64,000 nt of DNA from positions 32,001-96,000 of the forward strand of contig JBDHUY010000005.1 in the NCBI GenBank assembly GCA_039809385.1. Reading direction: 5' to 3'. Origin of the DNA: Candidatus Altimarinota bacterium (GTDB lineage: Bacteria > Patescibacteriota > Gracilibacteria > JBDHUY01). The notes under the pieces are model-generated. The model was not told the origin of the DNA and ran no database searches. It saw only the letters and a list, made by a program, of their open reading frames with translations. Shown here piece after piece: positions 1-42,469 of this stretch (the first letter of the stretch is position 1; each line of letters starts with the position of its first letter). The translations under genes and the position numbers were made by a program.

Positions 1-6
1 GTACCT

Positions 7-7257: not shown

Positions 7258-7268
7258 GGATTCTTTCT

Positions 7269-7303
7269 AAACCGGGCCGGTAATAAGCTGACCGGTCCGG
7301 TTT
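7269..7303 (+). terminator. GC-rich hairpin with a weak U tail (partial terminator or mRNA stabiliser)
   Basis: AAACCGGGCCGGT-loop-ACCGGTCCGGTTT just after the stop codon. Confidence 0.55.
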
Positions 7304-7340
7304 GCCCTCACACTTTACTTCTTTGTCGCTCCAACAGTTT

Positions 7341-8786: not shown

Positions 8787-8817
8787 TACGGAACTTTTCT
8801 TTTATAGTACTCTTTCC

Positions 8818-8845
8818 AAAAAGACCCGCCGCGGCGGGTCTTTTT
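8818..8845 (+). terminator. Rho-independent terminator
   Basis: AAAAAGACCCGCC-GC-GGCGGGTCTTTTT. Confidence 0.85.
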
Positions 8846-9160
8846 GTGTATACATTTTCTTGAAACAAAATTAGTTGAAAAGCGTTTAACAGGTGTTGTT
8901 GCCGTTCGATATGTAAATCAAACTTTACACTTTTCTCAAGCCAAAAATAGCTTGCGTGGAACCGGATTTTTGCTACAGTAATCTCTAGTCTTTGGCACGA
9001 TAGAAACTATACTCTGCTAACTTGAAACATCAGCATGGTTGAGGCCGACAGTAATTTTTTAGTTCTTTCCTTTTTATTTTCACCAAAAAGAAAATAGGCT
9101 GTGTCTATTTCTTTTTATACGATCTTTTTATTTTTTTATTTCATTATTTTTTCATCTTGT

Positions 9161-13528: not shown

Positions 13529-13557
13529 TCTTGTTTCATTTCCACTTGGATTTTCAG

Positions 13558-13589
13558 AAAAGGGCCCCGGGAGAACCGGGCCCTTTTTT
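13558..13589 (+). terminator. Rho-independent terminator
   Basis: AAAAGGGCCCCGG-GAGAA-CCGGGCCCTTTTTT. Confidence 0.8.
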
Positions 13590-13668
13590 GTATATCCCGA
13601 TCTTGACCATTTTGCAGGGTTTTATACAATACAAGATGATTATTTCATGTACTTTATTACTGTTTTGT

Positions 13669-24474: not shown

Positions 24475-26276
24475 TACACAATCGCCGGTGGCATCCCGTC
24501 GCACAGCAGCACTTTTTCTTTACCGGGTCCGTTTTTGCTGATGACCGCCTCCCATATACTTGCTTCGCTGATCGCACCGTTGGTTTGGGTCCGTACCTGA
24601 TTGGCAAACTCGGCCACTTCTTCGCGATGATTCTGCAGATTCTCCTGCGCAAAAGCGATCACGTTCGCTCCCGTGCTGTTAAAAAATTTCTCGGTTCCGT
24701 TCTCTGTGCAGCTTTTCCCGCTTTGAATATTAGCCAGTGGGATGGCGCCGTTGGAAAAGCCTTCGTTGCTGCAAGCGTCAAAATTTCTTTTCAGCGAACG
24801 CGCAAACTGGGCAATACTATTTGAATCAGCCGCAGGATTATTTTTATAGACACTTTCGTACCACAGGACAAATAACTGTGATGCCACCACCCGCTCGTAG
24901 GCTTCACGTATTGAGGCAGGATCTTTGCCGAATACAACCACGACGCTTTGTTTGCGCGACACATCCTGGGCATAAACAGTCTCAATTATGTCTATTCCAT
25001 GAGACTGTAAGGCATACGCTGGGATCCCAAGCATACCAGTTGGAGCCCCATAACGACTTTGACATTCGTCGACTTGGGCTTCGGTCGGTTTCACGCAATC
25101 ATAGACAATATTTGGACAATTCGACGGCGAAGCGTTGCCTTCGTTCCGTCCGGTGCATTTTTCCATTGAACAACGTGCTAACATAAGATCTCGTATGTTG
25201 TTTTGTCTCTGTTCCAGATCAGGAAACCATCGTTGAGAGTCTTGCGCATCCTTAGGACTAAGCGGGGGAATGGCACCATCGCGAGGTATGTCATTTTTAG
25301 GGGGATTTAGATAATCATCGAGCGGATACTCAACACAATTTTGAACTGTATCACCTTCCTTGAACGTGGGGCAGTTCGGTTCGATTTTGGTTTCAAGTCC
25401 GGGATTAAGTGCTTCCGGACGGCTCGGATCGTTTAAGTATTTCTCGATCTCCGCCGCCGTCAATTTTTCGTCGTCGTAAAAGGCAAAGATGGAGAGTGCC
25501 TGATAACCGTCGGTTACCACATCCAGCGCTACTTTTATCTCACCCGTGGCGTCGGTTTTTACTTTACGCGTCTGTAAAACCAGGCTACGGTCCTTGTTGG
25601 CTACGACAATCAGAACATTCGCATTAGGCGCGGCTTTTACCGCGATATCGAAACGTACCGCCCCACCGGGGTCCGTACATCCGACTTGAGCCGGGCCGGT
25701 GACAACGGCCTGAGCTATGGGCACGGTAAAATAGATACTGGCGCTTTGCGGAGAGATCAAAAGCAGGCTGTTACCGCTGTCGGACTGATCGGTTACATCG
25801 CACCGGGCCGATAAACGGTAATTCTGATAAGTACTCTTTCTAAGCGGTGCCAAATACGTATCGACGTTTTCCTGAATCAGTTCGTTATTTTTCTTGAGAT
25901 AAATCCTAACATGATCTCCCTCAAATTCGGAAAATCTTAGCTGTATAGTACTGGCAATTTCCCATAAACCCGTATCCTGACGTTGTCCTTCAAATACTAG
26001 TTCACCTTCGTTATTAAGACATACCGGCGATTTGAGAATATCGAACAAAATATTGGCCGGCTGTTCACAGATATCTTTTAACGCTTCGCCCGGTTTGGGA
26101 TTACCCCGGCAGATCCACAGATCGCCTTTGATAAACTGAAAATTGGTACCGCTTACCGGCTCGATTACACGCAAATAACGTTTGACCGTAGTTTGTCCCT
26201 GTCCGGGAGTTGCGGCCAGCGTAAAAAGTAACAAGACCGGCAACGCGTATCGAAACATAATAGAAACGTATCTCAT
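24471..26276 (-). CDS. Secreted hypothetical protein (N-terminal region paralogous to 28126..30138)
   Basis: Signal peptide; Cys-rich; last gene of a three-gene operon. Confidence 0.7.
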   Translation of the reverse strand: MRYVSIMFRYALPVLLLFTLAATPGQGQTTVKRYLRVIEPVSGTNFQFIKGDLWICRGNPKPGEALKDICEQPANILFDILKSPVCLNNEGELVFEGQRQDTGLWEIASTIQLRFSEFEGDHVRIYLKKNNELIQENVDTYLAPLRKSTYQNYRLSARCDVTDQSDSGNSLLLISPQSASIYFTVPIAQAVVTGPAQVGCTDPGGAVRFDIAVKAAPNANVLIVVANKDRSLVLQTRKVKTDATGEIKVALDVVTDGYQALSIFAFYDDEKLTAAEIEKYLNDPSRPEALNPGLETKIEPNCPTFKEGDTVQNCVEYPLDDYLNPPKNDIPRDGAIPPLSPKDAQDSQRWFPDLEQRQNNIRDLMLARCSMEKCTGRNEGNASPSNCPNIVYDCVKPTEAQVDECQSRYGAPTGMLGIPAYALQSHGIDIIETVYAQDVSRKQSVVVVFGKDPASIREAYERVVASQLFVLWYESVYKNNPAADSNSIAQFARSLKRNFDACSNEGFSNGAIPLANIQSGKSCTENGTEKFFNSTGANVIAFAQENLQNHREEVAEFANQVRTQTNGAISEASIWEAVISKNGPGKEKVLLCDGMPPAIVY

Positions 26277-26289
26277 GAAAAAGGGAGGG

Positions 26290-28029
26290 TTATGGATTGG
26301 CGCTTGTCTCATCAGCGTCGGACAAAGCGCTCACGACGGTTAAAAAATTGACAACCGTTCCGTTGGTCAAAACGGCTTCGCCCTGAAAGAAGTAGGCCGG
26401 AGAAAGGTAAGCTTGCGGTAAGAGCACCGAGCGATTCAAATAGCCCACGCGAACGTCAGTAATCTTGGCGCGGGTACTCACCGCTTCTCCGCTGGGAAAC
26501 AGTGTCGCGCGGCTGCTGCCCTCGACCGAACCAACCGGGTTTATCCACTGTACTATCCCTTTCCCCTGTTGCAGGCGCTTCAATGCTTCCTCCGAGGAGA
26601 TCAGCGAGAATCTTCCGAGGGATCGCTTTACGCGTCGCATCCGGTAATCGATATAGAGAACCGTTTTGCTTGCGCGATCGACCTCCACGGTAATCGTGTT
26701 GGCATCATTCAGACGGGCCATACCGTCAAAACCGTCCGAAGTATCATAGACGGACGGATCGCTTTTGCGGATGTTGTCGGTTTCGAGCGTATTACTCTGC
26801 AGGAGCTGTAATCCTTTCAATACCGGAGTCTTCGTGCCATCCAGACTCTCGGCCCGCTTTATTTCTACCAGCAACGTATTTCGATTTTTTTGACGATACG
26901 TTGCGCTGACCAGATAGCCCGGGAGTGGTTGAAGCTTGGTCTGCTCCAGATAGCCCACGGCGATACGTGATAATTCTTCCTTTTCAGTCGGGCTCATGGT
27001 GTTGTTTTGAATGTCTGTAGAGAGCGTAAAATAACCGGGGGCAAAATAGCGAAAAGCTCCTGAATTCTTAGCGATTTCGATACGGGCTCCGTTCTCATCC
27101 TGAATCAGATAACTGGAAAAATCCGGCTTGTCGGCCGACCCAGTCATTCCCAGCTGCCTGCCGAGTTTTTCGGCGTCTCCAAAACCCAGGCTGTGGTATA
27201 ATTCGTAGACTTCGGTTGTAGCCGGGATCGATACTTGGATGGTATTGTCCAGCGTGTACCCCGAAATTTTCTTTTTGACGTTAATATCCGAAGCTTCGGC
27301 ATTATAAAATTTCTTACTTACCGGATCCTGGCCGGTAGCGTCGAGCGCCGCGTTTGCCATTGTTTCGGCTTTGGGAGGAATCGGCCCCAGATCCGGTGTC
27401 TGTGCCAGATCCTGCTTTATTTTTACGATATTCTGACTAAGAGTTTTACACGATTCTTCCGGGTTGTCGAACACGGCGGCTTTGAGCATCGCGGTTTCGC
27501 GTCGTTTCCATAGATCCGGGATATAATCGGGTTGGGCGATGCTTTTTAGCGTATCTTCGCTTAGCGGTTTCCCGGCTTTCAGGTTTTCGGCTTCGGCGGA
27601 CGGTAAAAGCTTGTTTATCAATTGTGAACATTCCTGTTTTTTGAGACCGGTCTCAACCTTTTGTGTTTCGCTTTTATACGCCTGTAACTCCGAGAAAATG
27701 GTCTTGGCCGAATTATTTCCCTGCTGGGCCTGCTCCTGGAGTTGATATTCGATACGACGCAGTTTTGCGGCACGGGTCTGGTCTTCGATCTCGCCGGGAA
27801 AGGTTAGTTCGTAAAAAGTTTCCTGCTTGATCTCGTTCGTTGCAAACAGGCCGCCGAATTCGTCGAGATTTAAAACCGCGACGGGCGTATTCAGATTTTT
27901 ATTTTGCACGGCCGGGTTTGATTGAATTCCGCCGGGATTTTTGGGCTGACTCATCGTTACCAGAACCACAATCCCAATGAGAACCAGGACGCCGATCAGG
28001 CTTGCCGAGAACAAATATTTTTTGTTCAT
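26290..28029 (-). CDS. Membrane-anchored hypothetical protein, C-terminus YycH/YycI-like
   Basis: N-terminal TM; LISSEEALKRL...ITDVRVGY...YLSPAYFF motif. Confidence 0.65.
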   Translation of the reverse strand: MNKKYLFSASLIGVLVLIGIVVLVTMSQPKNPGGIQSNPAVQNKNLNTPVAVLNLDEFGGLFATNEIKQETFYELTFPGEIEDQTRAAKLRRIEYQLQEQAQQGNNSAKTIFSELQAYKSETQKVETGLKKQECSQLINKLLPSAEAENLKAGKPLSEDTLKSIAQPDYIPDLWKRRETAMLKAAVFDNPEESCKTLSQNIVKIKQDLAQTPDLGPIPPKAETMANAALDATGQDPVSKKFYNAEASDINVKKKISGYTLDNTIQVSIPATTEVYELYHSLGFGDAEKLGRQLGMTGSADKPDFSSYLIQDENGARIEIAKNSGAFRYFAPGYFTLSTDIQNNTMSPTEKEELSRIAVGYLEQTKLQPLPGYLVSATYRQKNRNTLLVEIKRAESLDGTKTPVLKGLQLLQSNTLETDNIRKSDPSVYDTSDGFDGMARLNDANTITVEVDRASKTVLYIDYRMRRVKRSLGRFSLISSEEALKRLQQGKGIVQWINPVGSVEGSSRATLFPSGEAVSTRAKITDVRVGYLNRSVLLPQAYLSPAYFFQGEAVLTNGTVVNFLTVVSALSDADETSANP

Positions 28030-28125
28030 AAAAAATGTCAACGAAACAAACTTGACTCTTATTATATAAATCGCACTGTCATCCCGCAAGCAAACCGGGG
28101 TTTATCTTGCAAACGTGTGCCTCTT

Positions 28126-30138
28126 TTATTTTATGTATACTCCCAGTTCTAAGAGAAACGAGTCGAAACTGGCAGGATCGGGCACTCCTGATAGAAGCGG
28201 TTCTTCCACGTTGACAGGAGTTTGAATGCCTTCGATATAGAGCATGATCCGTTTGCGTTCCTGCACGGCCGGACTTGTTTCCAGGACAATGGTATTCTCC
28301 CACTCCTGTTCGTCCACCAGTCCTATAAAGTAGTAAGGCGATGATTTGATGCGGGGAATAATGTCTTCCAGGTATGCTTGCTTTTGCGCGTTGTTCAGTC
28401 CCAACCGTTCCATAATCGTATCTAGGAGAAAACCTTGCAAATTCTCTTGGGCAACCACAAAACCTTTTTCGGGTTTCGTTAGCTTCATCCCTTTACGAAG
28501 CGTGAATTCGTAAAACAGGTACGGTGCCAGCACAAGATCCTTTTTCAAATCTTCCAGGGCCGTTTTTATGGTGACCGGATTCAGCGGATTTTTTCCTAAA
28601 ATTTCAATAAACGCCTCCAGCAGTTTTTTTGTTTTTACGGCAATCAAAGTTTTGTTTGATATAGTAAGCACATTCCAGGTTGCCTTGGTTGTCTCGCTGC
28701 GTACAAGCTCTCCTTGAGGTGAAATGGATATCTGTTCAGGTGCTTGGGTTGGTGGCGGATCGAAAACCGGAAGGGTCCCGCGCCGGTTATCCAAGCGGAT
28801 GGTAAACATGGTTGGTTCTTTGGAAAACACGTAGACTAATGGAGATATATGGGTTACCTTTCCAGTCTTCAGATTTGTACAATCCATCGAATACGCACAA
28901 GGTTGGTTGGGCACATCATTTATGGTACAGACTTCGCGCGGCGGTGTTACTTCTTCACAAAATTCATCCATACCTATATCGCACTCTGGTCCCACACATT
29001 CCGGTCCGGGTAGATTATATGGCTGTGACGCTTGGGGCGGGATATCGACCTGAATGTCGCAACTGGCCTTTTCTCCGCTCTCGGAAACCTCTTGCCTTTT
29101 TTCCCCTACATCCAGACTAATGATCTCGTTGCTCGGTGGAGCGAAGGTGCTTCTTTCTCGGTCCGGAATAACCGCGAATTTCCCCCGGACTCCTGGAATG
29201 CGTTTGAGTCCGGCAATGGCAAATTTACTTCCGTCTTGATTTGTACATTGTCCCCTGCTGTGCTGATCGAGTGGAATACAGGCGGGCAGCTGAACCGTCG
29301 CGCCCGTATTCAAGGCTACCAGACTTTCGGGTATCGTCATCAGTTTTTCGATTGCCGCCCCCGAAAGATTTGCCCTTTTGGAACCGAAGAATCCGACGAT
29401 CTGGATCTTCTCGGCGTTTCCTTTTGCGAGTCCGTTGAGACTGTATTCGGCTTTTCCCGTTTCATCGGTCTGAACCCGCACGTCGGTCAAGATCTCTTTG
29501 GTCGCCTGATCCATAACTACCAGCAATACTTCGACCGACGGAAAGGCTTGAATCTCAAGATCGATCTTTCCCAATCGATTTTCAATGCAGACCGGTTGAT
29601 TTTTTGCCCTTACATTCGCTTGTCCCAACGGCACGAAAAAATCGGGTTGGCTTTTGTCGCTCACCAGTACCGGGCTGCCGCTCCCGTCACTGCCCGAACT
29701 TCCCGTTTCGTAGCTGGGATATAGGGTATATTTTTGAAAAACGCCGACCATGCCGTTCTCACCCATAAAATATCTTTCCATATTTTCCCGGTTGAATTCG
29801 CCGTTGCTAACGAACGGAATTCGAATATGATTGTTATCACCCGCCTGATAGATTTCTCCTACGAGAGGCGAGATTTGCGATTCGTCTTTTCCCATGATCT
29901 CAACCTTTACCGGCGTTCTGGCCGGGGCCAGCAGATCGAAACCGAAGTCTACGGCTTTTTGGCAATCCGGTACGCTTTCCTGCATTTTGCATATCTGGAG
30001 CGTATCTCCCTGCAACGAATAATATTGGCCGGATTGTGGCTCGATCACTGTGGCATAGGATGCCAATACATCTTTGACATGTATTAGACTAAAAAATAAA
30101 AATGTCCCAGTGATAAACCAACGAGTTTTGAAAGTCAT
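28126..30138 (-). CDS. Secreted hypothetical protein with a C-terminal KPVIYLYP...EWGG-like domain
   Basis: Signal peptide; SPLVYVF, YLFYE, KGFVV, LGLN, LETSP...R and LELG motifs. Confidence 0.65.
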   Translation of the reverse strand: MTFKTRWFITGTFLFFSLIHVKDVLASYATVIEPQSGQYYSLQGDTLQICKMQESVPDCQKAVDFGFDLLAPARTPVKVEIMGKDESQISPLVGEIYQAGDNNHIRIPFVSNGEFNRENMERYFMGENGMVGVFQKYTLYPSYETGSSGSDGSGSPVLVSDKSQPDFFVPLGQANVRAKNQPVCIENRLGKIDLEIQAFPSVEVLLVVMDQATKEILTDVRVQTDETGKAEYSLNGLAKGNAEKIQIVGFFGSKRANLSGAAIEKLMTIPESLVALNTGATVQLPACIPLDQHSRGQCTNQDGSKFAIAGLKRIPGVRGKFAVIPDRERSTFAPPSNEIISLDVGEKRQEVSESGEKASCDIQVDIPPQASQPYNLPGPECVGPECDIGMDEFCEEVTPPREVCTINDVPNQPCAYSMDCTNLKTGKVTHISPLVYVFSKEPTMFTIRLDNRRGTLPVFDPPPTQAPEQISISPQGELVRSETTKATWNVLTISNKTLIAVKTKKLLEAFIEILGKNPLNPVTIKTALEDLKKDLVLAPYLFYEFTLRKGMKLTKPEKGFVVAQENLQGFLLDTIMERLGLNNAQKQAYLEDIIPRIKSSPYYFIGLVDEQEWENTIVLETSPAVQERKRIMLYIEGIQTPVNVEEPLLSGVPDPASFDSFLLELGVYIK

Positions 30139-30478
30139 GCTGACAGTCTTTATTGAACATTCTGTACAGTATACCATAGAGAAACTATTTCTTTCAATGC
30201 AGTACCGGCGGCGATTTTTTTTCTCCGGATTACAGCTTGACTCGTCTTGTACCTGCTGGTAGTTTTAAGCAAACAAACCAAAACGCAGACATGATATTGT
30301 TGGCTTTTGGCGTATTCGATATAGGTAAGAATAATGCGGAGAGTCCCTGCAACGTTCTACCTAACAACATTCATGGCAGGTATCTCTTCCTCAGAAATCT
30401 TCTCATAAGAAAATATGCGTATAGGATAAAAACATAATCGATTCTTCCTCCGCATTTTATTTTTTACTTATTTCCCGT

Positions 30479-31189
30479 ATGTCCAAGCAATCATCCGGTA
30501 TGTTGCTCGTTGGTCTGCTCCTGGGAGCTAGTTTGACCTTTTCTTTTCAGTATGCGGTCGGCATCGATAAAGATCCCGAACCTTCCGGTACTGCCACACT
30601 TTCCTTAACAGCTCCCAAATCGGTCAGTGTCTTAACAAATACAGGCGGATTTACCGTTCCAACGATACTTCAATATAAACAAAACAGTTGTACTTCCTGC
30701 AGCGGACAAGATGTGGTAAATGAGATCATGATCGATGTAAACGGCGATGGGTTGACCGATATCGCGAATGTGGACAAGGATCCATACACTGGAAATAATA
30801 CCTATCTGAATAACGGCGACGGAACATGGGTGGTGGGAAAAGGCGTACAGGAATATGACGGCTATAACTATGTGTACCACTATACGGATATTAACGGAGA
30901 TGGAAAAGTTGAGCAGCTCCAGACTCAGTGGCAGCCGAGTGGTGACGGGTATTATTTTGTTACAATTAGCGGTACGGGGCTTGTTACTAATGCAAGTGTC
31001 AAAGTTCTCTCCACTCGACCATTTGAACGTGGCTTGCATTTTATGGATGTCAATGGCGACAGTTTACCCGATATGGTCATATCCGGGTATGATTTTCAAG
31101 GATCTTCCGGCTCGAATTACCTATACAAAGCCGTATTTCTGAATACCGGAACAGGCTGGGAAAAAGTGTACGAGGCAGTTGGTTCATAA
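30479..31189 (+). CDS. Exported FG-GAP/VCBS-repeat protein
   Basis: N-terminal hydrophobic segment; DVNGDGLTDI, DINGDGK, DVNGDSLPDM, YLNNGDGTW, FLNTGTGW. Confidence 0.85.
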   Translation: MSKQSSGMLLVGLLLGASLTFSFQYAVGIDKDPEPSGTATLSLTAPKSVSVLTNTGGFTVPTILQYKQNSCTSCSGQDVVNEIMIDVNGDGLTDIANVDKDPYTGNNTYLNNGDGTWVVGKGVQEYDGYNYVYHYTDINGDGKVEQLQTQWQPSGDGYYFVTISGTGLVTNASVKVLSTRPFERGLHFMDVNGDSLPDMVISGYDFQGSSGSNYLYKAVFLNTGTGWEKVYEAVGS

Positions 31190-31225
31190 GCTGTAGCTAC
31201 GCTTTATTCCTCTTCTTTGATTCTT

Positions 31226-34200
31226 ATGAACTTCTCTATACAACTACAGCGACGTCAGGTGCGTGCCGGTTCTGTACTCCTTGTCATCCTTATCGCGCAA
31301 TTGCTTTTCTCATCAACAGCTTTGGCTCAGGAAACAGGAAATATCCCCGGGGATATCGCCCCGCCGACCGCTTCAGGATCAGAAGTGGGGACAACTACCC
31401 TTATACCGGAAGCAACTGAAATCTCAGATGAAACGGGATCAGACAGTTTTGACGTATCTACTCACAATGCCTCTGCGGAAAAACGTCTGGAAAAGATTGC
31501 GCCGGAAACTGCGTCGGCTTCTACCGAACCTGACACGCTACCTCCTTTTAATCCGGGAGGAATAGCACACCACGCAAATCAGGGCGATACGCTGCAAGAA
31601 TTCAGCGGGACCTTCAATGCCGATCTTTTTAGCGGAAGCGCATCCTTTACCTACCCGTTGCAACTTCCCCCGGGACGGAACAATCTGACTCCGGTACTCG
31701 GCTTGCACTATTCATCGGCAAATTCACGCCCGGACAGTCTGGCCGGTTTTGGGTGGGATAGTACGTCTTCATCGATTACCAGAACAAGCAAAAAACCGAT
31801 TCAGGATATTTTTACGGATACTACATTCACTTCCTCTATTTTTGGTCAAAACGAAGAACTTGTCCTGGTAAATGCGGCCACCGGCGAATACCGTCCCAAG
31901 GTAGAAGGGTCCTTTCGTATATATACCCTGAACAACAATACCTGGCTTGTGAAAGATAAAAATGGAACCGTGTATACGTTTGGCAACTCATCCGCAAGCA
32001 GACAGGATGATCCTCTGGATGCCAGCCATATCTATCAATGGATGCTCGAAAAGATCGAAGACCGGAATGGCAATACCATGCTGTTTTCCTATACCAAAAA
32101 CCAGGGATACGTCTATCCCGACACCATACGATATACCGGCAATGGGAACGACCCGGGAATATATCAAGTCCAGTTCGGATATGCCCCGCATCCCCGCCCA
32201 GTAGAGCGATATGCTACTGGTTTTTTCGTTAAGTTATCCCAGCGGTTGACTAGTATCAATATTCAGGTCAAGCATGGCGCCTCCTATGAAACGGTCAATA
32301 GCTACCAACTCTCCTATGATGATAGCGATGTGCGGGGCCTTTTGTCTCAAATCCAGATTGTCACGGCCAGTGGAACGCTTCCGCCCACTAGGTTTGGTTA
32401 TACCCATGATGCTCCGGTCGGGACGCCGTATATACCGAGCGGACTTCTCCAATTGATCCAGACTCCGTACGGAGCAAGTACTCAATTGATGTATCGGTCA
32501 TCGGCGCAGTATATCGATGCTATCGGTATGAGACTGAACCCGAAATTGCCGTTTACCATGACCACGGTTGCGCAAGTAAGTACCAAAAATACTTCGGCAG
32601 ATGTGCCCAAAGTTATGACATACGAATATGCCCAGGGGCATTATTTCACTGATTTTTATGACCACACCAAACGCGAATATGCCGGATTCGGTATAGTGAC
32701 GGTGAAAGATGCGGCTGGAAATGTACAAAAGAACTATTTTCATCAGAGTGAGAAAGATTTCAGCAATACAGCTGCCGCCGCTTGGGGCGAATACCAGGAT
32801 CATTTGAGTAAAAAAGGGCTGATATACCGATCGGAAAGCTATGACCATGCCGGACATCTCTATGCTGTTTCGGTCAACAAATACGATCGTACCGACTTGG
32901 GGAATGCTCGTAACTTTCCTTTCCTGGTGCAATCGGTGAGTATGAGTTACGACGGTACCGCTACGCATCGCGACACGGCCGTCTCCTATACCTATGATGC
33001 CTATGGCAATGTTCTGACACAAAAAAATTGGGGCGAAGTGGTCGCTGACAATGCTGGTTCGTTTACCGACTTGGGAAATGATACGGTTATACGGGAGACA
33101 TCGTATGCTCTCAATGCTGCCGCGTATATTACTGCACTACCCCAGCAGGTGGTTATCAAGGACGGTTCGAATAGCATCTTGCAACAACAACGTTTCTACT
33201 ACGATGGATTAGCGCTGGGGGAGGTTTCAAAGGGCAATGTAACCAAACAGGAGGACTGGCTCAAGGAATCTGACCGGTTTATCCCTGTAAAACAACAGGC
33301 GTTCAACGCATTAGGGCTTCCCACATCTGTCACCGATGCCCGCGGAAAAGTTACGGCATATACCTATGATACGTTCAATCTTTATCCATTGGCTGTTACG
33401 AACCCGCTGGGACATGGGTTCTCTTTTGTGTACGATTATGATTCCGGGAAAGTCAAAGAGACACTCGATCCTAATGGAGCCAAAACCACGAACACGTATG
33501 ACAGCTTGGGAAGATTGCTCGAGACCAGAGTTACCAACCCGACCAATCCCAGCTCCCAGCTGATAGCCAGCAGTATGCAGTATTTTGATGCCGAGATTCC
33601 GGTTAGAATCGTTACAACCCAGTTTAATGGTCAACCTGGAGATGTGGGCAAACTGACGATCAAGTTTTTCGATGGGTTCGGCCATTTGTTGCAAACCAGA
33701 AATACCGCCGAAGCAGTGAACGAGTATGCCGTTACCTCGATCCTGTATGATGAACAGAACCGTGTGAAAAAAGAGTTGCTGCCCATATTTGAGACCGGTG
33801 CCTCCTTTACAGTTCCAAATGCTAATGCTCCGGGAAGCAGTTTCAGCTATGATTCGCTGGATCGTGTCCTTGCCGTCAGTAATAGTCTGGGTACAACTGC
33901 AACGAGCTATGACAAATGGACCAAACTCGTAACTGACGCCAACGGTCATCAAAAGAAGTTTTATTTTGATGCTTACCAAAATCTTGTTCAGGTTGATGAA
34001 AAGAACGGATCTGCTACATACACGACCCGCTATGACTATGACCGCTTGCAAAGATTGGCAGCGATTACCGATGCCGAAGGTAACGTTCGTAATTTTACTT
34101 ATGACTCGCTCTCGAGATTACTTTCCCAGGATATGCTGCACAAGCCGACAGCTAACAGCTCACAGCTGACGGCTTGGAACTATACATATGATGATACCGG

Positions 34201-37200
34201 TAATGTTGTACAGAAGACTGATCCGAATGGCCAGGTGGTCAGCTATACTTACGACGATTTGAACCGTCCGTTGACGGAAGATTTTGCTGGAACAGCCGGA
34301 GTGGAAGTGAGTAATGAATATGATATCGGGATCTACGCCAAGGGCAAAGTAAACAAAGTGAGTACCGCCGGATTGGTGCAGGAATTTGGATATGGCATTT
34401 TGGGAAATCAAGAAGTCCTAACACAGCGAATTGACGGAAAGGTCTATAATACCTATACTTCATATGATCTGCTGGGGAACGTGCTGAATGTGTCTTATAA
34501 TAATTTTAAGACGATCAGTTATCAGTACAACAAAGCCTATTTGATCGATCGGGTGACGGAGGGGCTCAATGTCCTGGTAGCCAATGTGGACTACAATCCG
34601 CAGGGACTCATTAGCAAAATTGATTTTGGTAACGGCACGAGTACGGTCAACACCTACGATCCACAGAAGCTGTATCGTTTGACAAACAAAAAAACGACCA
34701 AGGGCGCGAATATTGTCTACCAGAATATCGATTATACTTACGATCCGGTTGGAAATCTGATCAATATTACCGAGAACGCTGCTACCGCGGCCCAACGCAA
34801 CGCTGTATATACATATGACGATCTTGATCGGCTTCTCTCTGCGACGACGATCCGCACTGATTCTCTTTCTGCCAATCAGAATACATTTATACAAAACTTT
34901 GACCAGCTTGTGGCTGCCCGTGTAGTCGAAGGTGATGTTGTAGCAAAAGACCTGACTTCCGCTGTGACAAGCTCTGCTGTAACTTTGACCAGTCTGACCC
35001 CAGGTAGTGGCCTGGCAGGTGCAAGTATAGTGGCTTTGGGGACAAATTTTGCGCCGACTAATAACGAGGTCAATTTTGTCGGATGTCAATCCGCGACAAC
35101 AATTTATGGTATCTCTTCGGCAAACGGTACAACTTTGAATTTTGCTGTCCCTTTTTCATCAAACATCTCTGATAACTGTATTGTGATGATTCGAAGTAAT
35201 AACGTATTGAGCAACGGACTTCCTTTTACTATAGTGGCCAGCAACTCCAATACAAATTCCAGTAACCAGAATCAGAATACCAATTCTCTTACCCAAACAT
35301 TTAGCTATAGTCCTACTGGTAATATCCTGTCCAATTCACTTCTGGGCAACTACGTCTATAATGGAACGTCCAACGCCAATCCCCAGGCTGTGACGCACAT
35401 AGGATCGGAACGCAGCTATATGTACGATAAAAATGGGAATGTTATCGCAACAGCAAATGCCGGTGTATCTCACAACCTGCGCTATGATTATCGTAACAAC
35501 ATGGTCGAGTCCAGCACAGGGACAAGTGTGACCAAGTATATGTATGACGCCAGACATGGTCGCATGAAAAAATGGAATGTTCCATCCCCCGCAGCTGTTT
35601 GGCATAATACTATTGCCGATACCGACTGGTCGAACTTGCTCGTCCAGGTCGGAGAAACGGATACAGCCACTGAGACCCCGGTTATTCTGGCGGCTGCCGT
35701 AACCGGCCCTGTAACGCTCTCCGGATTGAATCCGACCAGCGGCCCCCCCGGAACCGTAGTAACCTTGACCGGAACAAATTTTAGCAGTACGTCCAACCGG
35801 GTCCGCATGGAATGTACGGGGACGGGCGGAGGGCAAAAAAATATAAGCGAACTATCTTCTGCCAACGGAACCTCTCTCTCTTTTACCGTTCCAAGCAGTC
35901 TCTCGGGTTTTCAGGGAGCGTGTACGGTCAGTGCCAGAAACAGTACCGTCGCGACCTATAGCAATGGCTTGGTCTTTACGGTGAACGGAGTCGCTACGCT
36001 TGCCGGGCTCTCGCCTGCGAGCGGACCTCCCGTTACCAATGTTACCGTCACCGGAACCAACTTCACCAGTACGGGAAATACAGTTCAAATGAAGTGTGGT
36101 ACGGCCGGAGTAAAAAGTATCGCGAACCTCGTTTCCGCGAATGGTACTAGCCTCACGTTCTCTGTTCCCGCCGCATTGTCAACCTATCAGGGAAACTGTA
36201 TGGTCAGTGTACGAAACAGTAAAGTCAGTCTCTATAGTGCCGAATTGCCTTTCACGGTCAAGGGAGGCGTTACACTGTCCGGTGTAAATCCGGCTGCCGG
36301 ACCGGTGGGAACGGCTGTTACGCTGGCTGGTGAAAATTTCAGCAGTACCGGAAATACCGTCAAAATGGTGTGTAGCGGTACGGGCGGAGGAACCAAAACC
36401 ATAGCTTCAATCGATTCTCCCAGCGGAACATCGGTCGTCTTTACGGTTCCGGCTACTCTGTCTGCCTTTACTGGCAATTGCAACGTGAGCGCGCGCAGTT
36501 CCGCCATTGCGACGTACAGTAACTCGCTGGTGTATAGGGTGGGGACTGTTGCCACGAATGGGAATGGAAACAGTTCCAACCAAAACACCAATGCTCAAAA
36601 CGCGAATAGCAATGGGGCTAATTCCAATATAAACAGTGGCAGTAGTAATGCTAATGTGAACGCTTCCAATCAGAATATCAATGCAGCCAACGTTAATATA
36701 AATCTGAATGTCAACAGCCCGGCCGGTAATACAAATGCCAATATGGCAAATCAAAACCTGAACGCTCCCCAGGGAGTTCCGGTTATCTCCACGGTCACCC
36801 CCGACTCCGGTGCGGCTGGTACGCTGGTAACGCTGCATGGTTCAGGGTTTACCGCTACGGGCAATACGGTGACGTTCAAGAAGTGTTCACCTTTGTATCA
36901 GTCGGCATCTGTCTCCAATCTATCCTCGACCAATGGCACTGACCTGGTCTTTGCCATTCCCGCGACTCTGACCGAGCCGGGCCTCTGTCAGTCCCTTCTG
37001 GTCGGGAATCCCAATGGATTTAGCAACAGTGTCTCTTTTACGATCACCACAGGCACTTCAAATGTAAATACCAATCTGAATGGCAATGGGAATACCAATG
37101 GCGAGAATGGTAATACGAACGGAAACGGGGGGAACGGTAATACAAATGCTCCGGCCAGTAATATGACGCTCTATCTGGGGGGCTATGAGGTAGAGGGAAC

Positions 37201-38293
37201 CGCCGATCCGAACGGTGTTTTGACAACGCAGAATCTCAAGCGGCTGAATATCAACCTGGGGTCTGACCAGGGGGTTTCGATTGAGACCGATCTGTCCAGT
37301 AATGTGACAAGGTATGTCTATCATCATACCGATTTTCTGACCGGCGGTTCGGTGGATACCGACCAGAATGGCTATATGCTCCAGGTGCAGGATTATATGC
37401 CTTTTGGGACGAATCGGGTTGATCAGCGGTTTTCATCGTATGCGAATAAGAAGAAATTTACGGGGAAAGAGCTGGATGGCGAAAGCGGGCTGTATTACTA
37501 TGGGGCGAGGTATTATGACAGCGATATTGGCCGGTGGATGGGGTTGGATCCGCTGGTACTGGGGGAGGTAAAGGAGAAGAAGATCGCGGATCTCCTGATG
37601 AATCCCCAGGAGCTAAACGGATATACGTATGTTTTGAACAATCCGCTCAAATATGTGGATATAACGGGATTACTTACCCAAGTCATTGTTCGGTCTGCCC
37701 GAGGATTGGCTGACATTAAGGACTTTGGGCATGTGGCAATCAGTATCAATGGAAGATGTTATGATTTTTACCCTATAAGTAACGATGCAGGTAAAAATCT
37801 TACAACGGGAAATCAGATGGTTCGAAATGTAGGAACTATATCGGACTTTATTAATGATCCAACGAATAAACCTGGTGATGTATTTTCGATATTTACCTTA
37901 AGCAGCAATATTTCTCTAGAACAAGAGAAAATGATTGAGGAGTATCTTAAGTCATATAATCTATCAGATAATGGGTATTCGGTTGGAGGTGCTTTCATAG
38001 AGAATGGTGGCGAAGTTTGTACAACGGTAGTGATTAACGCACTTAAAGCTGGGAATGTCTCCATCCCTCGTGTGGTAGATCCAGAGGGTCTAAGAGTCAA
38101 CTTAATGCTATATTATGTTGCTTCACAATTGGGGCATGTTAATAGTATTGTAAGTTCAGTAGAAATTATAACACTTAAAGAGGCTATGAAAAAATTCCAA
38201 GGCGGTATATTTACAAACATTGTTAATCCTGCTCCCATCTATGGGCCGCCTGCTCCTTCAAAGAAAGGACAGAATTCCGGCGCCTATCCATAA
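31226..38293 (+). CDS. Sec-exported SpvB/TcB-like YD-repeat RHS protein with five IPT/TIG domains and a variable C-terminal domain
   Basis: Signal peptide; SGSASFTYPLQLPPGRNNLTP.L.L.YSS...GFGW (SpvB); REYAGFG.V; YD repeats; FTGKELDGESGLYYYGARYYD...NNPLKYVDITG RHS core. Confidence 0.9.
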   Translation: MNFSIQLQRRQVRAGSVLLVILIAQLLFSSTALAQETGNIPGDIAPPTASGSEVGTTTLIPEATEISDETGSDSFDVSTHNASAEKRLEKIAPETASASTEPDTLPPFNPGGIAHHANQGDTLQEFSGTFNADLFSGSASFTYPLQLPPGRNNLTPVLGLHYSSANSRPDSLAGFGWDSTSSSITRTSKKPIQDIFTDTTFTSSIFGQNEELVLVNAATGEYRPKVEGSFRIYTLNNNTWLVKDKNGTVYTFGNSSASRQDDPLDASHIYQWMLEKIEDRNGNTMLFSYTKNQGYVYPDTIRYTGNGNDPGIYQVQFGYAPHPRPVERYATGFFVKLSQRLTSINIQVKHGASYETVNSYQLSYDDSDVRGLLSQIQIVTASGTLPPTRFGYTHDAPVGTPYIPSGLLQLIQTPYGASTQLMYRSSAQYIDAIGMRLNPKLPFTMTTVAQVSTKNTSADVPKVMTYEYAQGHYFTDFYDHTKREYAGFGIVTVKDAAGNVQKNYFHQSEKDFSNTAAAAWGEYQDHLSKKGLIYRSESYDHAGHLYAVSVNKYDRTDLGNARNFPFLVQSVSMSYDGTATHRDTAVSYTYDAYGNVLTQKNWGEVVADNAGSFTDLGNDTVIRETSYALNAAAYITALPQQVVIKDGSNSILQQQRFYYDGLALGEVSKGNVTKQEDWLKESDRFIPVKQQAFNALGLPTSVTDARGKVTAYTYDTFNLYPLAVTNPLGHGFSFVYDYDSGKVKETLDPNGAKTTNTYDSLGRLLETRVTNPTNPSSQLIASSMQYFDAEIPVRIVTTQFNGQPGDVGKLTIKFFDGFGHLLQTRNTAEAVNEYAVTSILYDEQNRVKKELLPIFETGASFTVPNANAPGSSFSYDSLDRVLAVSNSLGTTATSYDKWTKLVTDANGHQKKFYFDAYQNLVQVDEKNGSATYTTRYDYDRLQRLAAITDAEGNVRNFTYDSLSRLLSQDMLHKPTANSSQLTAWNYTYDDTGNVVQKTDPNGQVVSYTYDDLNRPLTEDFAGTAGVEVSNEYDIGIYAKGKVNKVSTAGLVQEFGYGILGNQEVLTQRIDGKVYNTYTSYDLLGNVLNVSYNNFKTISYQYNKAYLIDRVTEGLNVLVANVDYNPQGLISKIDFGNGTSTVNTYDPQKLYRLTNKKTTKGANIVYQNIDYTYDPVGNLINITENAATAAQRNAVYTYDDLDRLLSATTIRTDSLSANQNTFIQNFDQLVAARVVEGDVVAKDLTSAVTSSAVTLTSLTPGSGLAGASIVALGTNFAPTNNEVNFVGCQSATTIYGISSANGTTLNFAVPFSSNISDNCIVMIRSNNVLSNGLPFTIVASNSNTNSSNQNQNTNSLTQTFSYSPTGNILSNSLLGNYVYNGTSNANPQAVTHIGSERSYMYDKNGNVIATANAGVSHNLRYDYRNNMVESSTGTSVTKYMYDARHGRMKKWNVPSPAAVWHNTIADTDWSNLLVQVGETDTATETPVILAAAVTGPVTLSGLNPTSGPPGTVVTLTGTNFSSTSNRVRMECTGTGGGQKNISELSSANGTSLSFTVPSSLSGFQGACTVSARNSTVATYSNGLVFTVNGVATLAGLSPASGPPVTNVTVTGTNFTSTGNTVQMKCGTAGVKSIANLVSANGTSLTFSVPAALSTYQGNCMVSVRNSKVSLYSAELPFTVKGGVTLSGVNPAAGPVGTAVTLAGENFSSTGNTVKMVCSGTGGGTKTIASIDSPSGTSVVFTVPATLSAFTGNCNVSARSSAIATYSNSLVYRVGTVATNGNGNSSNQNTNAQNANSNGANSNINSGSSNANVNASNQNINAANVNINLNVNSPAGNTNANMANQNLNAPQGVPVISTVTPDSGAAGTLVTLHGSGFTATGNTVTFKKCSPLYQSASVSNLSSTNGTDLVFAIPATLTEPGLCQSLLVGNPNGFSNSVSFTITTGTSNVNTNLNGNGNTNGENGNTNGNGGNGNTNAPASNMTLYLGGYEVEGTADPNGVLTTQNLKRLNINLGSDQGVSIETDLSSNVTRYVYHHTDFLTGGSVDTDQNGYMLQVQDYMPFGTNRVDQRFSSYANKKKFTGKELDGESGLYYYGARYYDSDIGRWMGLDPLVLGEVKEKKIADLLMNPQELNGYTYVLNNPLKYVDITGLLTQVIVRSARGLADIKDFGHVAISINGRCYDFYPISNDAGKNLTTGNQMVRNVGTISDFINDPTNKPGDVFSIFTLSSNISLEQEKMIEEYLKSYNLSDNGYSVGGAFIENGGEVCTTVVINALKAGNVSIPRVVDPEGLRVNLMLYYVASQLGHVNSIVSSVEIITLKEAMKKFQGGIFTNIVNPAPIYGPPAPSKKGQNSGAYP

Positions 38294-38602: not shown

Positions 38603-39331
38603 TTATCTTTCCGGCCCTCTTCTAAAATCAATGTCAACAATGCCGACATTCACTCGCAAATCAAGAGCTCTGGTTAGCGCCGGGTAGGCGCGTCCTTCCA
38701 TAATCGTTTGTGTTAAAACATCCAACTTCCCCATACCCGGATACAGTATGGCGGTGTAGTAGACAGGATTTTCTAATGTTCTTATTCCGCCGACAAAATA
38801 TGGCAATTCATGCAGAATGTATAGGGCGACAGCTTCAAGTCTTTTTATCTCCGGACTTCTTCCTCTGCCCTCGACAATATTTTTGGCAATTTCCAGCACA
38901 CTGTGGTAAAAATCCGATTGCCTGGAGAACTCCCTGAAGAATATTTCCCGTCTTTTGATACACACAGGATCGCACGTTTCGTCATAATTTGCTACGGTAA
39001 TCTTTGCTTGTTGCTTCACAGGAAGCCTTAACACGATCGCGGTAATAGTATCTTTCATCCTGTCTTCATCCGCAAAAGCCCGCCTCAGTGATTCAGCTCT
39101 GCCGAATTTTTCAAAGTAGTAATAGTTGGTGGCTTGTATTCTTCCCGGTACCCAGATAAGGATTTTCTCTTTTGTGTATTGTAGCGCAAAATCGAGCATG
39201 GCCCTGATATGTTCTGAATCGAATAGCCTATTTGAAAGGCTAATACCGATCCATATATTATGTCTACGTGCATATATTTCTTCGAGATGGATGCCCATAC
39301 TTGTCATCGCGTTGACTTGGAATTTTGACAT
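38603..39331 (-). CDS. tRNA-dependent cyclodipeptide synthase (CDPS)
   Basis: HNIWIGISLSN (HxxxGIS motif with catalytic Ser), YILHELP (YxxxExP), ILYP; 242 aa. Confidence 0.85.
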   Translation of the reverse strand: MSKFQVNAMTSMGIHLEEIYARRHNIWIGISLSNRLFDSEHIRAMLDFALQYTKEKILIWVPGRIQATNYYYFEKFGRAESLRRAFADEDRMKDTITAIVLRLPVKQQAKITVANYDETCDPVCIKRREIFFREFSRQSDFYHSVLEIAKNIVEGRGRSPEIKRLEAVALYILHELPYFVGGIRTLENPVYYTAILYPGMGKLDVLTQTIMEGRAYPALTRALDLRVNVGIVDIDFRRGPER

Positions 39332-39925: not shown

Positions 39926-41851
39926 ATGCTTTCCGCTCTCGATATTCAGCAGCGATTCCTCCGCTTTTTCGGCGAGGCGCCCCGCGACCACAAACGTATT
40001 CCGAATGTTTCTTTGGTTCCGCATAACGATCCGTCTTTGCTTTTCGTCAATTCGGGCATGTTTCCCCTGGTTCCGTATTTATCCGGCGAACCGCACCCGC
40101 TGGGAAAACGGCTCTGCAATTTTCAGCGTAGTATCCGGACCATGGCCGAGGATCTGGAGGAGATCGGCGATGCCCGCCATACCACCTGTTTTAACATGAT
40201 GGGCAACTGGAGTCTGGGCGATTTCTGGAAAACCGAGCAGATTCCCTGGATCGCCGAATTATATATCAAAGAGTTCGGTCTGGATATCAACCGCTTCTTC
40301 GTTTCTGTCTTTAAAGGCGATACCGATGCTCCCCGCGATGACGACGCCATCGAGATGTGGAAAAAAGTCTTTGCCCAATATGGCATCGAAGCTCAGGTGA
40401 GCGACGACCCTTACGACGTCATGAAAAATTATGACAACAGCGGTAATCTTTTGCCAGATCAGTCGAAGTCCTATCGAATCTTTGCCTATGAAAAGAAGAA
40501 AAACTGGTGGCAGCGCGGCCATGCGGCCGGTGAGCTCGGAGGTCCTTCGAGTGAAATGTTTTACGATTGCGGGGCTCCGCTCGAGGGCGAGTATAAAAAT
40601 GCCTATCATATCAATGACGACAGCGGCAAATTCATCGAGGTTGGTAACAACGTTTTCATGGAATATTACCTCGATGAGGGTTTGAAATGGCAGAAGCTCA
40701 AGCAGCGCAATATCGACTTTGGCGGCGGGTTTGAACGGGTAGTTTTTTGCACCCAGAACAAGATGGACATTTTCGACACCGAACTCTATTTACCGGCTAT
40801 TCAGGTTATCGAACAGCTTTCAGGTTTGAAATACCACGATCTGTCTGAAACGGCCAAAAAGCCGTTCCGGGTAATTGTCGACCATATTCGCGCCGCGACG
40901 TTCATCATGGGCGACGAAGTCCTGCCGAGTAACAAGGAACAGGGGTATATCTTGCGCCGCTTTATTCGGCGTGCGATCAACTTTGGCAGAAAGTTGAATC
41001 TGGACAAAGGCTTTACCGGAGAGGTGGGGGCCCGGTTTGTAGACATACTGACACAGTTTGACGACTATGTTTTTTTGAAGGAGAAAAAGGAAATGATTGT
41101 GGCCGAACTGCTTAAAGAAGAAGACAAGTTTCATAAAACCCTGTCGCAGGGGATTCGCGAACTGGACAAATATCTGTCTACGAGTCCAACGTTGTCGGGG
41201 GAGCAGGCATTTTATATTTTTGAAACGTTCGGTTTTCCGTTTGATCTGATTGTGGACGAGCTAATTAGTCGTGCGATTCCTTTTGACTGGAACAACCTTG
41301 AAGCCGATTTTAAAAAGGCTATGCAGCAGCACCGCGCTCAAAGTAATGCCGGAGCCGAACATGTCTTTAAGGGCGGGCTGGCCGACACCAAGGTTGAGAC
41401 AACCCGGCTGCATACGACGCACCATATTTTACTGGCGACGTTACGCAAAATCTTGGGGCCGCATGTCCATCAGCGAGGGAGCAATATTACGGCGGAGCGG
41501 CTGCGGATGGATTTTTCGCATACCGAAAAAATGACGCCCGAGCAGCTGCAAATTACCGAGGATATGGTGAATGAGGTTATTTCGAAAGACTATACTATGG
41601 TCCGCCGCGAGATGAAGTTTGACGAGGCGGTCAACCAGGGCGCCGAGATGGAATTTGGACAAAAATATGGCGATGTCGTGTCTGTCTACTTTCTCGAGGA
41701 TGCCGAGGGTAATGCCTTCAGCAAGGAGTTTTGCGGCGGGCCGCATGTCCAACATACGTCCGAAATTCGCGAGGGCGGGAGGTTCAAGATTATGAAGGAA
41801 GAGGCGGTGGGGAGCGGGGTGAGGAGGATTAAGGGGGTGTTGGTTAAGTAA
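39926..41851 (+). CDS. alaS: Alanine--tRNA ligase, short form without C-Ala
   Basis: DPSLLFVNSGMFP, ARHTTCFNMMGNWSLGD, IDFGGGFER, DHIRAA, editing HTTHH...EFCGGPHV; ends at GVRRIKG. Confidence 0.95.
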   Translation: MLSALDIQQRFLRFFGEAPRDHKRIPNVSLVPHNDPSLLFVNSGMFPLVPYLSGEPHPLGKRLCNFQRSIRTMAEDLEEIGDARHTTCFNMMGNWSLGDFWKTEQIPWIAELYIKEFGLDINRFFVSVFKGDTDAPRDDDAIEMWKKVFAQYGIEAQVSDDPYDVMKNYDNSGNLLPDQSKSYRIFAYEKKKNWWQRGHAAGELGGPSSEMFYDCGAPLEGEYKNAYHINDDSGKFIEVGNNVFMEYYLDEGLKWQKLKQRNIDFGGGFERVVFCTQNKMDIFDTELYLPAIQVIEQLSGLKYHDLSETAKKPFRVIVDHIRAATFIMGDEVLPSNKEQGYILRRFIRRAINFGRKLNLDKGFTGEVGARFVDILTQFDDYVFLKEKKEMIVAELLKEEDKFHKTLSQGIRELDKYLSTSPTLSGEQAFYIFETFGFPFDLIVDELISRAIPFDWNNLEADFKKAMQQHRAQSNAGAEHVFKGGLADTKVETTRLHTTHHILLATLRKILGPHVHQRGSNITAERLRMDFSHTEKMTPEQLQITEDMVNEVISKDYTMVRREMKFDEAVNQGAEMEFGQKYGDVVSVYFLEDAEGNAFSKEFCGGPHVQHTSEIREGGRFKIMKEEAVGSGVRRIKGVLVK

Positions 41852-41926
41852 TGAGTGCTATATTTATTTATCGTGACTATTAAAGGCGACAATGATAAAT
41901 TGTTGCTGTTATTTATAAACATGTAT

Positions 41927-42469
41927 ATGAAAAAATTGTTCATTGCTCTGTTGCTTGTCAGTGTATTGTTTACAACTGCATGTAATACACGAACTTCCTC
42001 TTCAAAAAATTTAGATTCAACCGCGTCGACCCTTCATGCAATCAATCAAGACTATGTCGCAGATCATGAAAATGTGTATTATAGCTTAGGTGGTGCTGAT
42101 CCAAAGACATTTCGGCTTTTGGATCAAGATTATGCCCGAGATAAAAATACAATATTTTACCATGGCAGGCGGCTCTCTCAGGTCGATCCTGATTCTTTTG
42201 TTGTTCAAAATGAAATTGCCCGGGATAAAAACTCGGTCTTTTTTGACGGTATGCCTATGGACGGTCCTGACCCCCTCAGTTTTGAGAGCCTGGGTGCAGC
42301 AACTTCTTTCTATAAAGACAAAAATGCTGTATATATGCTCATGGGGCAACAGCAAATTCTGCATAAGGTCATCGGGGCCAATCCTACAACATTTAGAGTC
42401 CCTCAGGATAATGGTCTTCCTCCTGATGAACTTCATTATTCCTATGAAGAAGTAAAAGTGAAAAATTAA
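41927..42469 (+). CDS. DKNYY-repeat lipoprotein
   Basis: Lipobox-like FTTAC; ADPKTF...YARDKN repeats. Confidence 0.8.
   Translation: MKKLFIALLLVSVLFTTACNTRTSSSKNLDSTASTLHAINQDYVADHENVYYSLGGADPKTFRLLDQDYARDKNTIFYHGRRLSQVDPDSFVVQNEIARDKNSVFFDGMPMDGPDPLSFESLGAATSFYKDKNAVYMLMGQQQILHKVIGANPTTFRVPQDNGLPPDELHYSYEEVKVKN

Follow-up and report, generated by a model that had tools for sequence, protein, structure and literature searches.

The question raised by the locus described here is whether a secreted toxin that has lost its beta-propeller is served instead by a small propeller-blade protein encoded directly before it. The window analyzed, a stretch of 64,000 nucleotides of the genome of a Candidatus Altimarinota bacterium (contig JBDHUY010000005.1, positions 32,001 to 96,000 of the forward strand), contains two adjacent genes on the + strand. 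The P0001 gene (30479..31189) is an open reading frame (ORF) encoding a 236-amino-acid exported protein with three FG-GAP blades, and the P0002 gene (31217..38293) encodes, according to ORF, Pfam and TIGRFAM analyses, a 2358-amino-acid SpvB-midN-RHS polymorphic toxin with a signal peptide and without a propeller. Sequence searches across genomes indicated that the family of P0001, whose members carry one to three blades of the RHS type, is encoded almost only before propeller-less SpvB-RHS genes. The association between blade genes and RHS genes is strong, specific and cross-phylum.

In Tc toxins, a six-bladed propeller binds TcA and gates release, according to excerpts of PMC6868009, and excerpts of Zhang et al. 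(2012; PMC3482391) give SpvB together with the propeller as the determinant of the TcdB/TcaC export class. Secreted toxins with the SpvB-propeller-RHS architecture form a widespread class, in which the propeller has no known job except in the Tc (ABC) toxins. A toxin from which the propeller was dropped, with a dedicated blade protein kept adjacent, is a natural experiment on that job, and its blade protein, being small and separable, lends itself to expression, deletion or exchange. In the Candidate Phyla Radiation (CPR)/Patescibacteria, for whose life on host cells surface toxins may be important, the family is common, and the system is bench-testable because it is also present in a cultured Tenacibaculum type strain. 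Full-text literature searches and excerpts of papers contained no account of a propeller-less SpvB-RHS gene paired with a blade gene. These results point to a two-part toxin system, a novel variation on the SpvB-RHS polymorphic toxins.

A fixed site of propeller loss in P0002

The P0002 gene has two possible starts, TTG at 31217 or ATG at 31226, and a signal peptide recognized by eye (..SSTALA|QE; 31226..31327) is followed by a low-complexity linker and the SpvB domain (residues 139-296; 31631..32104; PF03534, 4.7e-18). The TcdB_toxin_midN domain lies at residues 352-506 (32270..32734; PF12256, 1.2e-11). The SpvB landmark TLPPTRFGY begins at nucleotide 32375, and 13 residues join it to the midN landmark GLLQLIQ. 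The preliminary description of this DNA had held that these two landmarks are joined by only ~12 residues and that the propeller is absent from the shell protein; its coordinates proved right, and the comparison with homologues located the site at which a propeller is inserted elsewhere to residues 400-405 (32414..32431), as indicated by profile splits and the alignment with TcdB2.

The homologue set consisted of the best 120 of 294 database homologues, with P0002 residues 120-620 as the query. Twenty-one of these 120, including the window's own record and a paralogue from the source genome, align over approximately 97-100% of the query and are without an FG-GAP Pfam domain, whereas the other 99 align over about half of it. 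In these 99, the profile of the propeller-less N-terminus splits at the position of P0002 residues 400-405, where an insert with a median length of 356 amino acids (range 245-626) is found. The inserts contain 2-7 DxNxDG motifs, and no such motif is present at that site in the 21 unsplit homologues. P0002 itself had no FG-GAP match in Pfam and contains no DxNxDG motif. The propeller has been lost from P0002 at a fixed site.

The comparison with solved structures led to the same result. In phmmer searches, residues 140-293 of P0002 aligned with TcdB2 residues 35-205, and residues 413-503 aligned weakly with TcdB2 residues 701-793 (i-Evalue 130). Because these two alignments flank the gap, approximately 376 TcdB2 residues are without a counterpart in P0002, which is the deletion that an alignment to TcdB2 had been expected to reveal. 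A single-sequence search of the midN region against the PDB gave nothing significant, with TcdB1 at an E-value of 0.75.

The nearest homologues of P0002 belong to the SpvB-propeller-RHS class, with 32-50% identity, and the closest named ones are labelled Candidatus Peregrinibacteria. Like the members of this class, as presented in excerpts of PMC3482391, P0002 has a signal peptide, SpvB, midN, an RHS shell, an Rhs core and a variable C-terminus; it differs in having no propeller in cis, the blade protein being encoded separately upstream. P0002 also resembles the BC cocoon of Tc toxins (TcdB2-TccC3, YenBC), in that its SpvB and midN regions align with TcdB2 and its Rhs core with TccC3, and an encapsulating shell is presumed. 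In P0002, however, the B and C components are in one chain, the six-bladed gate, which is the TcA-binding propeller, is absent, and export is apparently by the Sec signal peptide. No match to the TcA-like families PF18276 and PF03538 was found in the source genome, which is 95% complete, a weak negative result since control genomes had no matches either. Teneurins and bacterial YD-shell proteins share with P0002 a YD/RHS shell that has accessory domains N-terminal to it. Teneurins have an FN-plug and an NHL propeller in cis (excerpts of PMC8765631), neither of which was detected in P0002 by Pfam. From its domain composition, P0002 is best placed in the SpvB (TcdB/TcaC-like) class of polymorphic RHS toxins, as a member exported by Sec whose internal FG-GAP/VCBS propeller has been lost.

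Blade genes beside propeller-less RHS genes

A second pair of the same kind is located on another contig of the source genome (G000:C1, L003:6614-13056), in the order of P0010, a 1690-amino-acid SpvB-midN-RHS gene with a barnase-type RNase end, and barstar. P0010 is an exported protein of 179 amino acids with one FG-GAP-like repeat. The 1690-amino-acid paralogue is 52% identical to P0002 over 1209 amino acids and both are propeller-less, and the alignment between P0001 and P0010 is confined to the blades. When the 16,644 open frames of the source genome were searched with the hidden Markov model (HMM) of the blade family, only P0001 and P0010 matched, and generic FG-GAP_3 repeats were also present in two unrelated large frames. 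Beyond barstar, the second locus carries an Ntox33-like ORF and a DUF4279 ORF.

In order to sample the class, 401 genomes were searched with P0002 residues 139-620, and 69 genomes matched. One-piece matches were taken as propeller-less (32 loci) and split matches as propeller-bearing (37 loci used); propeller-bearing matches left out were G240:C74, G073:C9, G157:C14 and G106:C10, which are at contig starts, second-half-only matches, and L034 (G001). A co-oriented ORF whose N-terminus is hydrophobic and which contains a DxNxDG motif was located upstream at 30 of the 32 propeller-less loci vs three of the 37 propeller-bearing loci. With the family HMM, the upstream gene matched at 30/32 and 0/37 loci, respectively; the former figure is circular and the latter independent, because it was the proteins upstream of the propeller-less RHS genes that had served to build the HMM. 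The gap between the blade gene and the RHS start was mostly 60 nucleotides or less. A search of the 401 genomes with the blade profile matched 36, and full-length matches precede a propeller-less RHS gene at 30 loci, with four full-length matches elsewhere, while partial matches are blades within propeller-bearing RHS frames.

Three candidates at propeller-bearing loci were rejected. Motif matches 1.1 kb upstream at L036 and L037 were unsupported by Pfam or by the family HMM, and the L041 candidate is a different protein, of 915 amino acids with six FG-GAP_3 repeats and CBM_4_9, rather than a member of the small family. The L041 gene (L041:340-3084), encoding FG-GAP and glycan-binding domains, lies 17 nucleotides upstream of a propeller-bearing RHS gene.

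A reverse test, in which 185,579 species genomes were scanned for the blade family, identified 38 loci, of which 17 were blades inside propeller-bearing RHS frames and 21 were stand-alone genes. Approximately nine of these 21 seem to be already in the class sample, and only about 12 are new. Seventeen of the 21 are directly followed by an RHS N-terminus, which is unsplit at the junction in 16 cases and at the end of a contig before the junction in one; at another two of the 21, the contig ends right behind the blade genes. The new loci include Saccharibacteria and Uhrbacteria, a Bacteroidales UBA6680 genome with four tandem blade genes and a propeller-less RHS gene (L082), and the isolate Tenacibaculum xiamenense WJ-1(T), a cultured type strain with the cassette on a 421-kb contig (L083). 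The co-occurrence across genomes that the preliminary description had proposed to look for is thus found, with an adjacent FG-GAP gene at 30/32 vs 0/37 loci, and together with the 17/21 loci of the reverse test this runs mostly counter to a loss of the propeller regardless of an FG-GAP neighbor. The proposal of a two-part system stands at the level of gene linkage, as a conserved and specific neighbor; it does not stand insofar as it took the upstream gene for the excised propeller.

In a tree of 80 RHS rows, from which the propeller columns were excluded, the RHS sequences of Bacteroidota and Uhrbacteria nest within the main CPR clade, and the gene and its partner therefore appear to have moved together, which suggests that the blade-RHS cassette was transferred between phyla. 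The propeller-less rows are divided among four groups, in every one of which blade genes occur, and the Saccharibacteria group is within a well-supported set holding 12 propeller-bearing rows. Forcing a single propeller-less clade gave a tree that was 48 log-likelihood units worse (approximately unbiased (AU) test, p = 0.031). More than one origin of the propeller-less form is suggested by these sequences, not established.

The small blade family, as defined by alignment A2, typically consists of proteins of 130-200 amino acids, with a signal peptide ending at an AxA-like site, a variable linker, a PxCxDNYxxWPxS..K....W motif, one blade (DxNGDGLxDyxY ... CVyLNNGxGWDxxYRC) and a YYGDCA tail. 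Four Cys residues are conserved, and Cys, Asp and Gly columns are invariant among 29 sequences. Loci contain one to four tandem blade genes, or fused proteins with two or three modules. Single blades of propeller-bearing homologues matched the family HMM at 1e-9 to 1e-12, and hhalign comparison of the family with the end of SpvB plus blade 1 gave a probability of 98.8 (E 8e-17), in which the N-terminal motif of the family falls on the LPxTxFxY strand preceding blade 1. These profile comparisons indicate that the blade of the family is homologous to RHS propeller blades.

With the family profile, 178 proteins were found at E ≤ 1e-30 in a library of 1.84 billion representatives. Among the 149 that were newly listed (50% identity representatives), 46 are single-module small proteins, 14 have two or three modules, and 89 are large proteins, mostly SpvB-RHS, in which HMM stretches numbered five in 13 proteins, six in 32 and seven in 30. 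The idea that blade numbers are divisors of six was rejected, given one locus with four tandem genes and cis propellers with 5, 6 or 7 stretches. A seeming in-frame fusion of blade and RHS modules (G203/L013) was likewise rejected, because there are 100 N between the modules. In lineages using code 25, in which TGA is a sense codon (L024-L030), exported proteins of 389-771 amino acids carry the blade module as their C-terminal domain, and Laminin_G_3, a concanavalin A-like lectin domain, was found at E ≤ 0.01 in five of seven scanned. Laminin_G_3 is also present in cis in many homologous RHS proteins. An Atlas search returned only generic FG-GAP clusters, with a poor model of a family member (predicted local distance difference test (pLDDT) 0.45, predicted template modelling score (pTM) 0.35).

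P0001 has the basic features of the family, namely a signal peptide-like N-terminus, a blade of the RHS type and a position directly 5' of a propeller-less SpvB-RHS gene. It matched FG-GAP_3 (PF13517) at 6.6e-9 and 36.7 bits, above the cut-off of 26.9. Its hydrophobic N-terminus (residues 1-28; 30479..30562) was recognized by eye and may be a signal peptide or an N-terminal anchor. Blade 1 (DVNGDGLTDI ... YLNNGDGTW; 30689..30829) was identified by the HMM at residues 71-117 with 19.4 bits and has its motif at residue 86; the weak core of blade 2 (DINGDG; 30866..30904) has its motif at residue 137 (HMM i-Evalue 0.54); and blade 3 (DVNGDSLPDM ... FLNTGTGWEKVYE; 31010..31174) was identified at residues 178-232 with 42.5 bits (4.1e-13). 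Blade 3 is the closest to the small family and to P0010 by BLASTP (5e-8), and calcium-loop motifs of the FG-GAP type are located at residues 86, 137 and 190. The strings DVNGDGLTDI, DVNGDSLPDM and FLNTGTGW, which had been quoted as the missing repeat type, are all present in this exported protein. A search of P0001 against the PDB gave no matches.

Two other statements about P0001 found no support in the form given. Three blades in 236 amino acids do not make a closed ring of about six or seven blades in one chain, and with three blades here and one in most relatives vs roughly five to seven in cis propellers, the gene is not the missing propeller, nor can it have originated by simply splitting off an internal domain. 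A membrane tether for the propeller protein had also been considered, but nothing points to one: inspection by eye revealed no lipobox, and the cleavage sites of typical relatives look AxA-like.

P0001 is without both the PxCxDNYxxWPxS motif and the YRC...YYGDCA four-Cys tail, both of which P0010 has, and because these Cys motifs are missing it was regarded as a divergent family member. Only three close relatives of P0001 were found, on contigs too short for context. The form of P0001 looks derived, because its RHS protein is sister to the RHS protein of the typical second locus.

The spacer between P0001 and P0002 (31190..31225) is 27 nucleotides long with the TTG start or 36 nucleotides with the ATG start, as determined from the sequence and from contigs of two studies. 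No terminator-like site was found on its + strand, and promoter and terminator scans gave no more than chance. The two genes are probably co-transcribed.

Possible roles of the blade protein

The role that we favor, at about even chances, is that of an extracellular partner or adaptor, dedicated to the toxin, by which P0001 takes the place of the cis propeller. The conserved blade scaffold would dock on the RHS protein and supply in trans the role of the cis propeller, and a surface or a target would be bound by the rapidly evolving loops or, in some lineages, by lectin-like domains fused to the blade. Such a partner could be swapped or duplicated with the 2000-amino-acid shell untouched. An adaptor or targeting subunit is proposed because the scaffold of the family is conserved, its loops vary, and some members are fused to a lectin-like domain. 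The blade proteins are less similar to each other than the RHS N-termini in 200 of 210 locus pairs, with median identities of 27% vs 40%, and one genome has RHS N-termini that are 93% identical beside proximal blade proteins that are 28% identical and possibly not orthologues. That the genes are transcribed together, that the proteins bind, where they would dock and that the partner has a role in targeting are all inferred from these sequences. Some functional partnership between blade protein and toxin, whether as adaptor or as an assembled propeller, is likely overall.

Several observations weigh against the adaptor role. Two of the 32 propeller-less loci, both of family f3, are preceded by housekeeping genes, and a blade gene was not found anywhere in their genomes, one of the two RHS frames being only 847 amino acids long. 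Genome G069 (88% complete) has three blade-family loci (L072-L074) and no match to the RHS N-terminus; its blade genes encode 142, 335 and 410 amino acids and have argS-, epimerase- and mgsA-like neighbors. In the reverse test, the blade genes of L085 lie downstream of the RHS gene and are followed by lepA and recJ, and L096 is an orphan blade locus. A metagenome scan with the profile from alignment A5, which represents the P0001 subtype, found a three-blade gene of the P0001 type before an RHS gene at none of 55 loci, which comprised 28 with blades inside RHS frames, 12 with other FG-GAP frames and 15 without a match to the A5 profile. That the blade proteins diverge so fast speaks against an extensive interface co-evolving with the toxin. 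Furthermore, a single propeller-less origin was not rejected in a 69-row tree (p = 0.338), and the association could rest on one or two ancient events, because kin are not independent and the p value from the 80-row tree is marginal.

The RhsA protein of the Pseudomonas protegens type VI secretion system is a further point of this kind. According to excerpts of PMC8765631, a plug domain homologous to a TcB domain seals its Rhs cocoon without a propeller. A cocoon that lacks the propeller may therefore require no substitute for it. P0002 is likewise an Rhs cocoon without a propeller, and by analogy a plug-only seal is plausible. It differs from RhsA in lacking a PAAR, prePAAR or VgrG context and in having an SpvB N-terminus, a Sec signal and a blade partner.

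A more literal substitute would be a ring formed at the SpvB-midN linker by copies of the blade protein (one to four genes with one to three blades each), which caps or gates the cocoon. We consider this doubtful. Its distribution is complementary to that of the cis propeller, its blades are homologous to RHS propeller blades with the N-terminal motif falling on the LPxTxFxY strand, a blade by itself should not fold stably, with which the poor model of a family member would agree, and in Tc toxins a six-bladed propeller closes and gates the cocoon (excerpts of PMC6868009 and PMC8765631). However, blade numbers per locus are one to four with no fixed total, the four conserved Cys suggest a disulfide-stabilized, self-standing module, large LamG fusions are a poor fit to a ring of six or seven subunits, fast divergence of blades is unlike a structural gate, and a TcA-like partner needing a gate was not found in the genome, control genomes being silent too. 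Some lectins are beta-propellers assembled from few-blade subunits. Assemblies of this kind were reportedly described by Afanasieva et al. in 2019. The blade family resembles these in consisting of short proteins of one to three blades that could make a propeller only via oligomerizing, and differs in its extra N-terminal motif and four-Cys tail. If the blades oligomerize, they would have a bearing on the evolution of propellers from single blades. There is a small chance that subunits with one, two or three blades assemble non-covalently into a propeller on the RHS cocoon, as a split, exchangeable gate or targeting head; this would be a natural propeller with one-blade subunits and a modular retargeting of an encapsulated toxin, in which subunits can be duplicated, swapped or fused to lectins and the head travels with the toxin between phyla.

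Comparably improbable is that the blade proteins are linked to the toxin and do not bind it, being independent secreted adhesins or surface proteins that were captured once beside an ancestral propeller-less RHS gene and kept through co-regulation or joint transfer. The p values of 0.338 and 0.031, by which a single origin is not firmly excluded, the orphan blade genes in G069 and L096, the two propeller-less RHS loci without blade genes, and LamG fusions with hypervariability, which are typical of adhesins, all agree with such a history; it is harder to reconcile with an adjacency, usually of 60 nucleotides or less, that has persisted while the RHS proteins diverged to about 30% identity, the genetic code changed and the genes were transferred to Bacteroidota, or with the absence of the family elsewhere in the source genome, and the specific likeness to RHS propeller blades would be a coincidence. 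Small size, export along with the toxin and a probable operon would also suit an exported protein that serves the toxin as a chaperone or maturation factor or in an immunity-like way, yet this is very unlikely, as the family is conserved in front of differing C-terminal toxin domains, a barstar gene is present at the paralogous locus downstream of the barnase domain, and, according to excerpts of Zhang et al. (2012; PMC3482391), beta-propeller domains had not been seen among immunity proteins. That the locus is an artefact or a decaying remnant, produced by misassembly, a pseudogene fragment or a chance ORF, is scarcely credible. Only the weak Pfam scores of some single-blade members speak for it, against which stand intact ORFs, signal peptides, the invariant Cys, Asp and Gly columns, and the single-module (46) and multi-module (14) proteins among the newly listed representatives. 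Contigs from four runs of two studies match with no differences, those bridging the P0001-P0002 spacer come from both studies and have no differences, and the SpvB-midN junction is spanned by a single contig, which belongs to the study that is also the likely source.

Other features of P0002, the window and the source genome

The first part of the RHS/YD-repeat shell of P0002 (32735..34861; PF05593, 8.1e-33; TIGR01643, 4.2e-22) is followed by a region of IPT/TIG inserts and Asn-rich linkers with a stretch of RHS repeats in between (34904..37096; PF01833, 2.1e-15, four stretches). The IPT/TIG stretches are at two places of the shell, with a fifth similar stretch seen by eye at approximately residues 1249-1335. 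The paralogue of P0002 is without these inserts, which may be surface-exposed binding domains. The RHS repeat-associated core is at residues 2060-2152 (37394..37672; TIGR03696, 4.9e-19), and the C-terminal variable domain of 202 amino acids (37685..38290), a presumed toxin, matched no Pfam family at E ≤ 0.1. Co-oriented ORFs of at least 80 amino acids, as candidates for an immunity gene, are absent between 38293 and 39926. A cyclodipeptide-synthase-like gene (38603-39331, - strand; PF16715, 3.4e-9) is located between P0002 and an alanyl-tRNA synthetase gene (39926-41851).

Propeller-less RHS genes of only ~1310-1340 amino acids were observed at L080, L083 and L004 and for P0020 and P0024. These genes may end before the Rhs core, as in a two-gene split like that of TcB and TcC.

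The source genome (G000) comprises 1.87 Mb in 26 contigs, and its class also includes lineages in which TGA is a sense codon. The runs containing the sequence were from activated sludge and wastewater, and none of the runs listed for it was an RNA run.

Positions 1-15531 of the window encode a series of very large surface proteins, beginning with a frame of 2418 amino acids with fn3 and Big_7 domains and an open 5' end, followed by three S-layer homology domain proteins of 494, 1475 and 666 amino acids. Three successive ORFs of 613, 599 and 683 amino acids on the - strand (24471-30177) are divergent to P0001, and none of them had a Pfam match. The divergently oriented neighbors of the two loci of the source genome, which on the P0001 side is the 683-amino-acid ORF, have no mutual homology. 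Directly after the alanyl-tRNA synthetase gene, at 41855-42469, the window contains a gene of the DKNYY family (PF13644, 4.9e-21).

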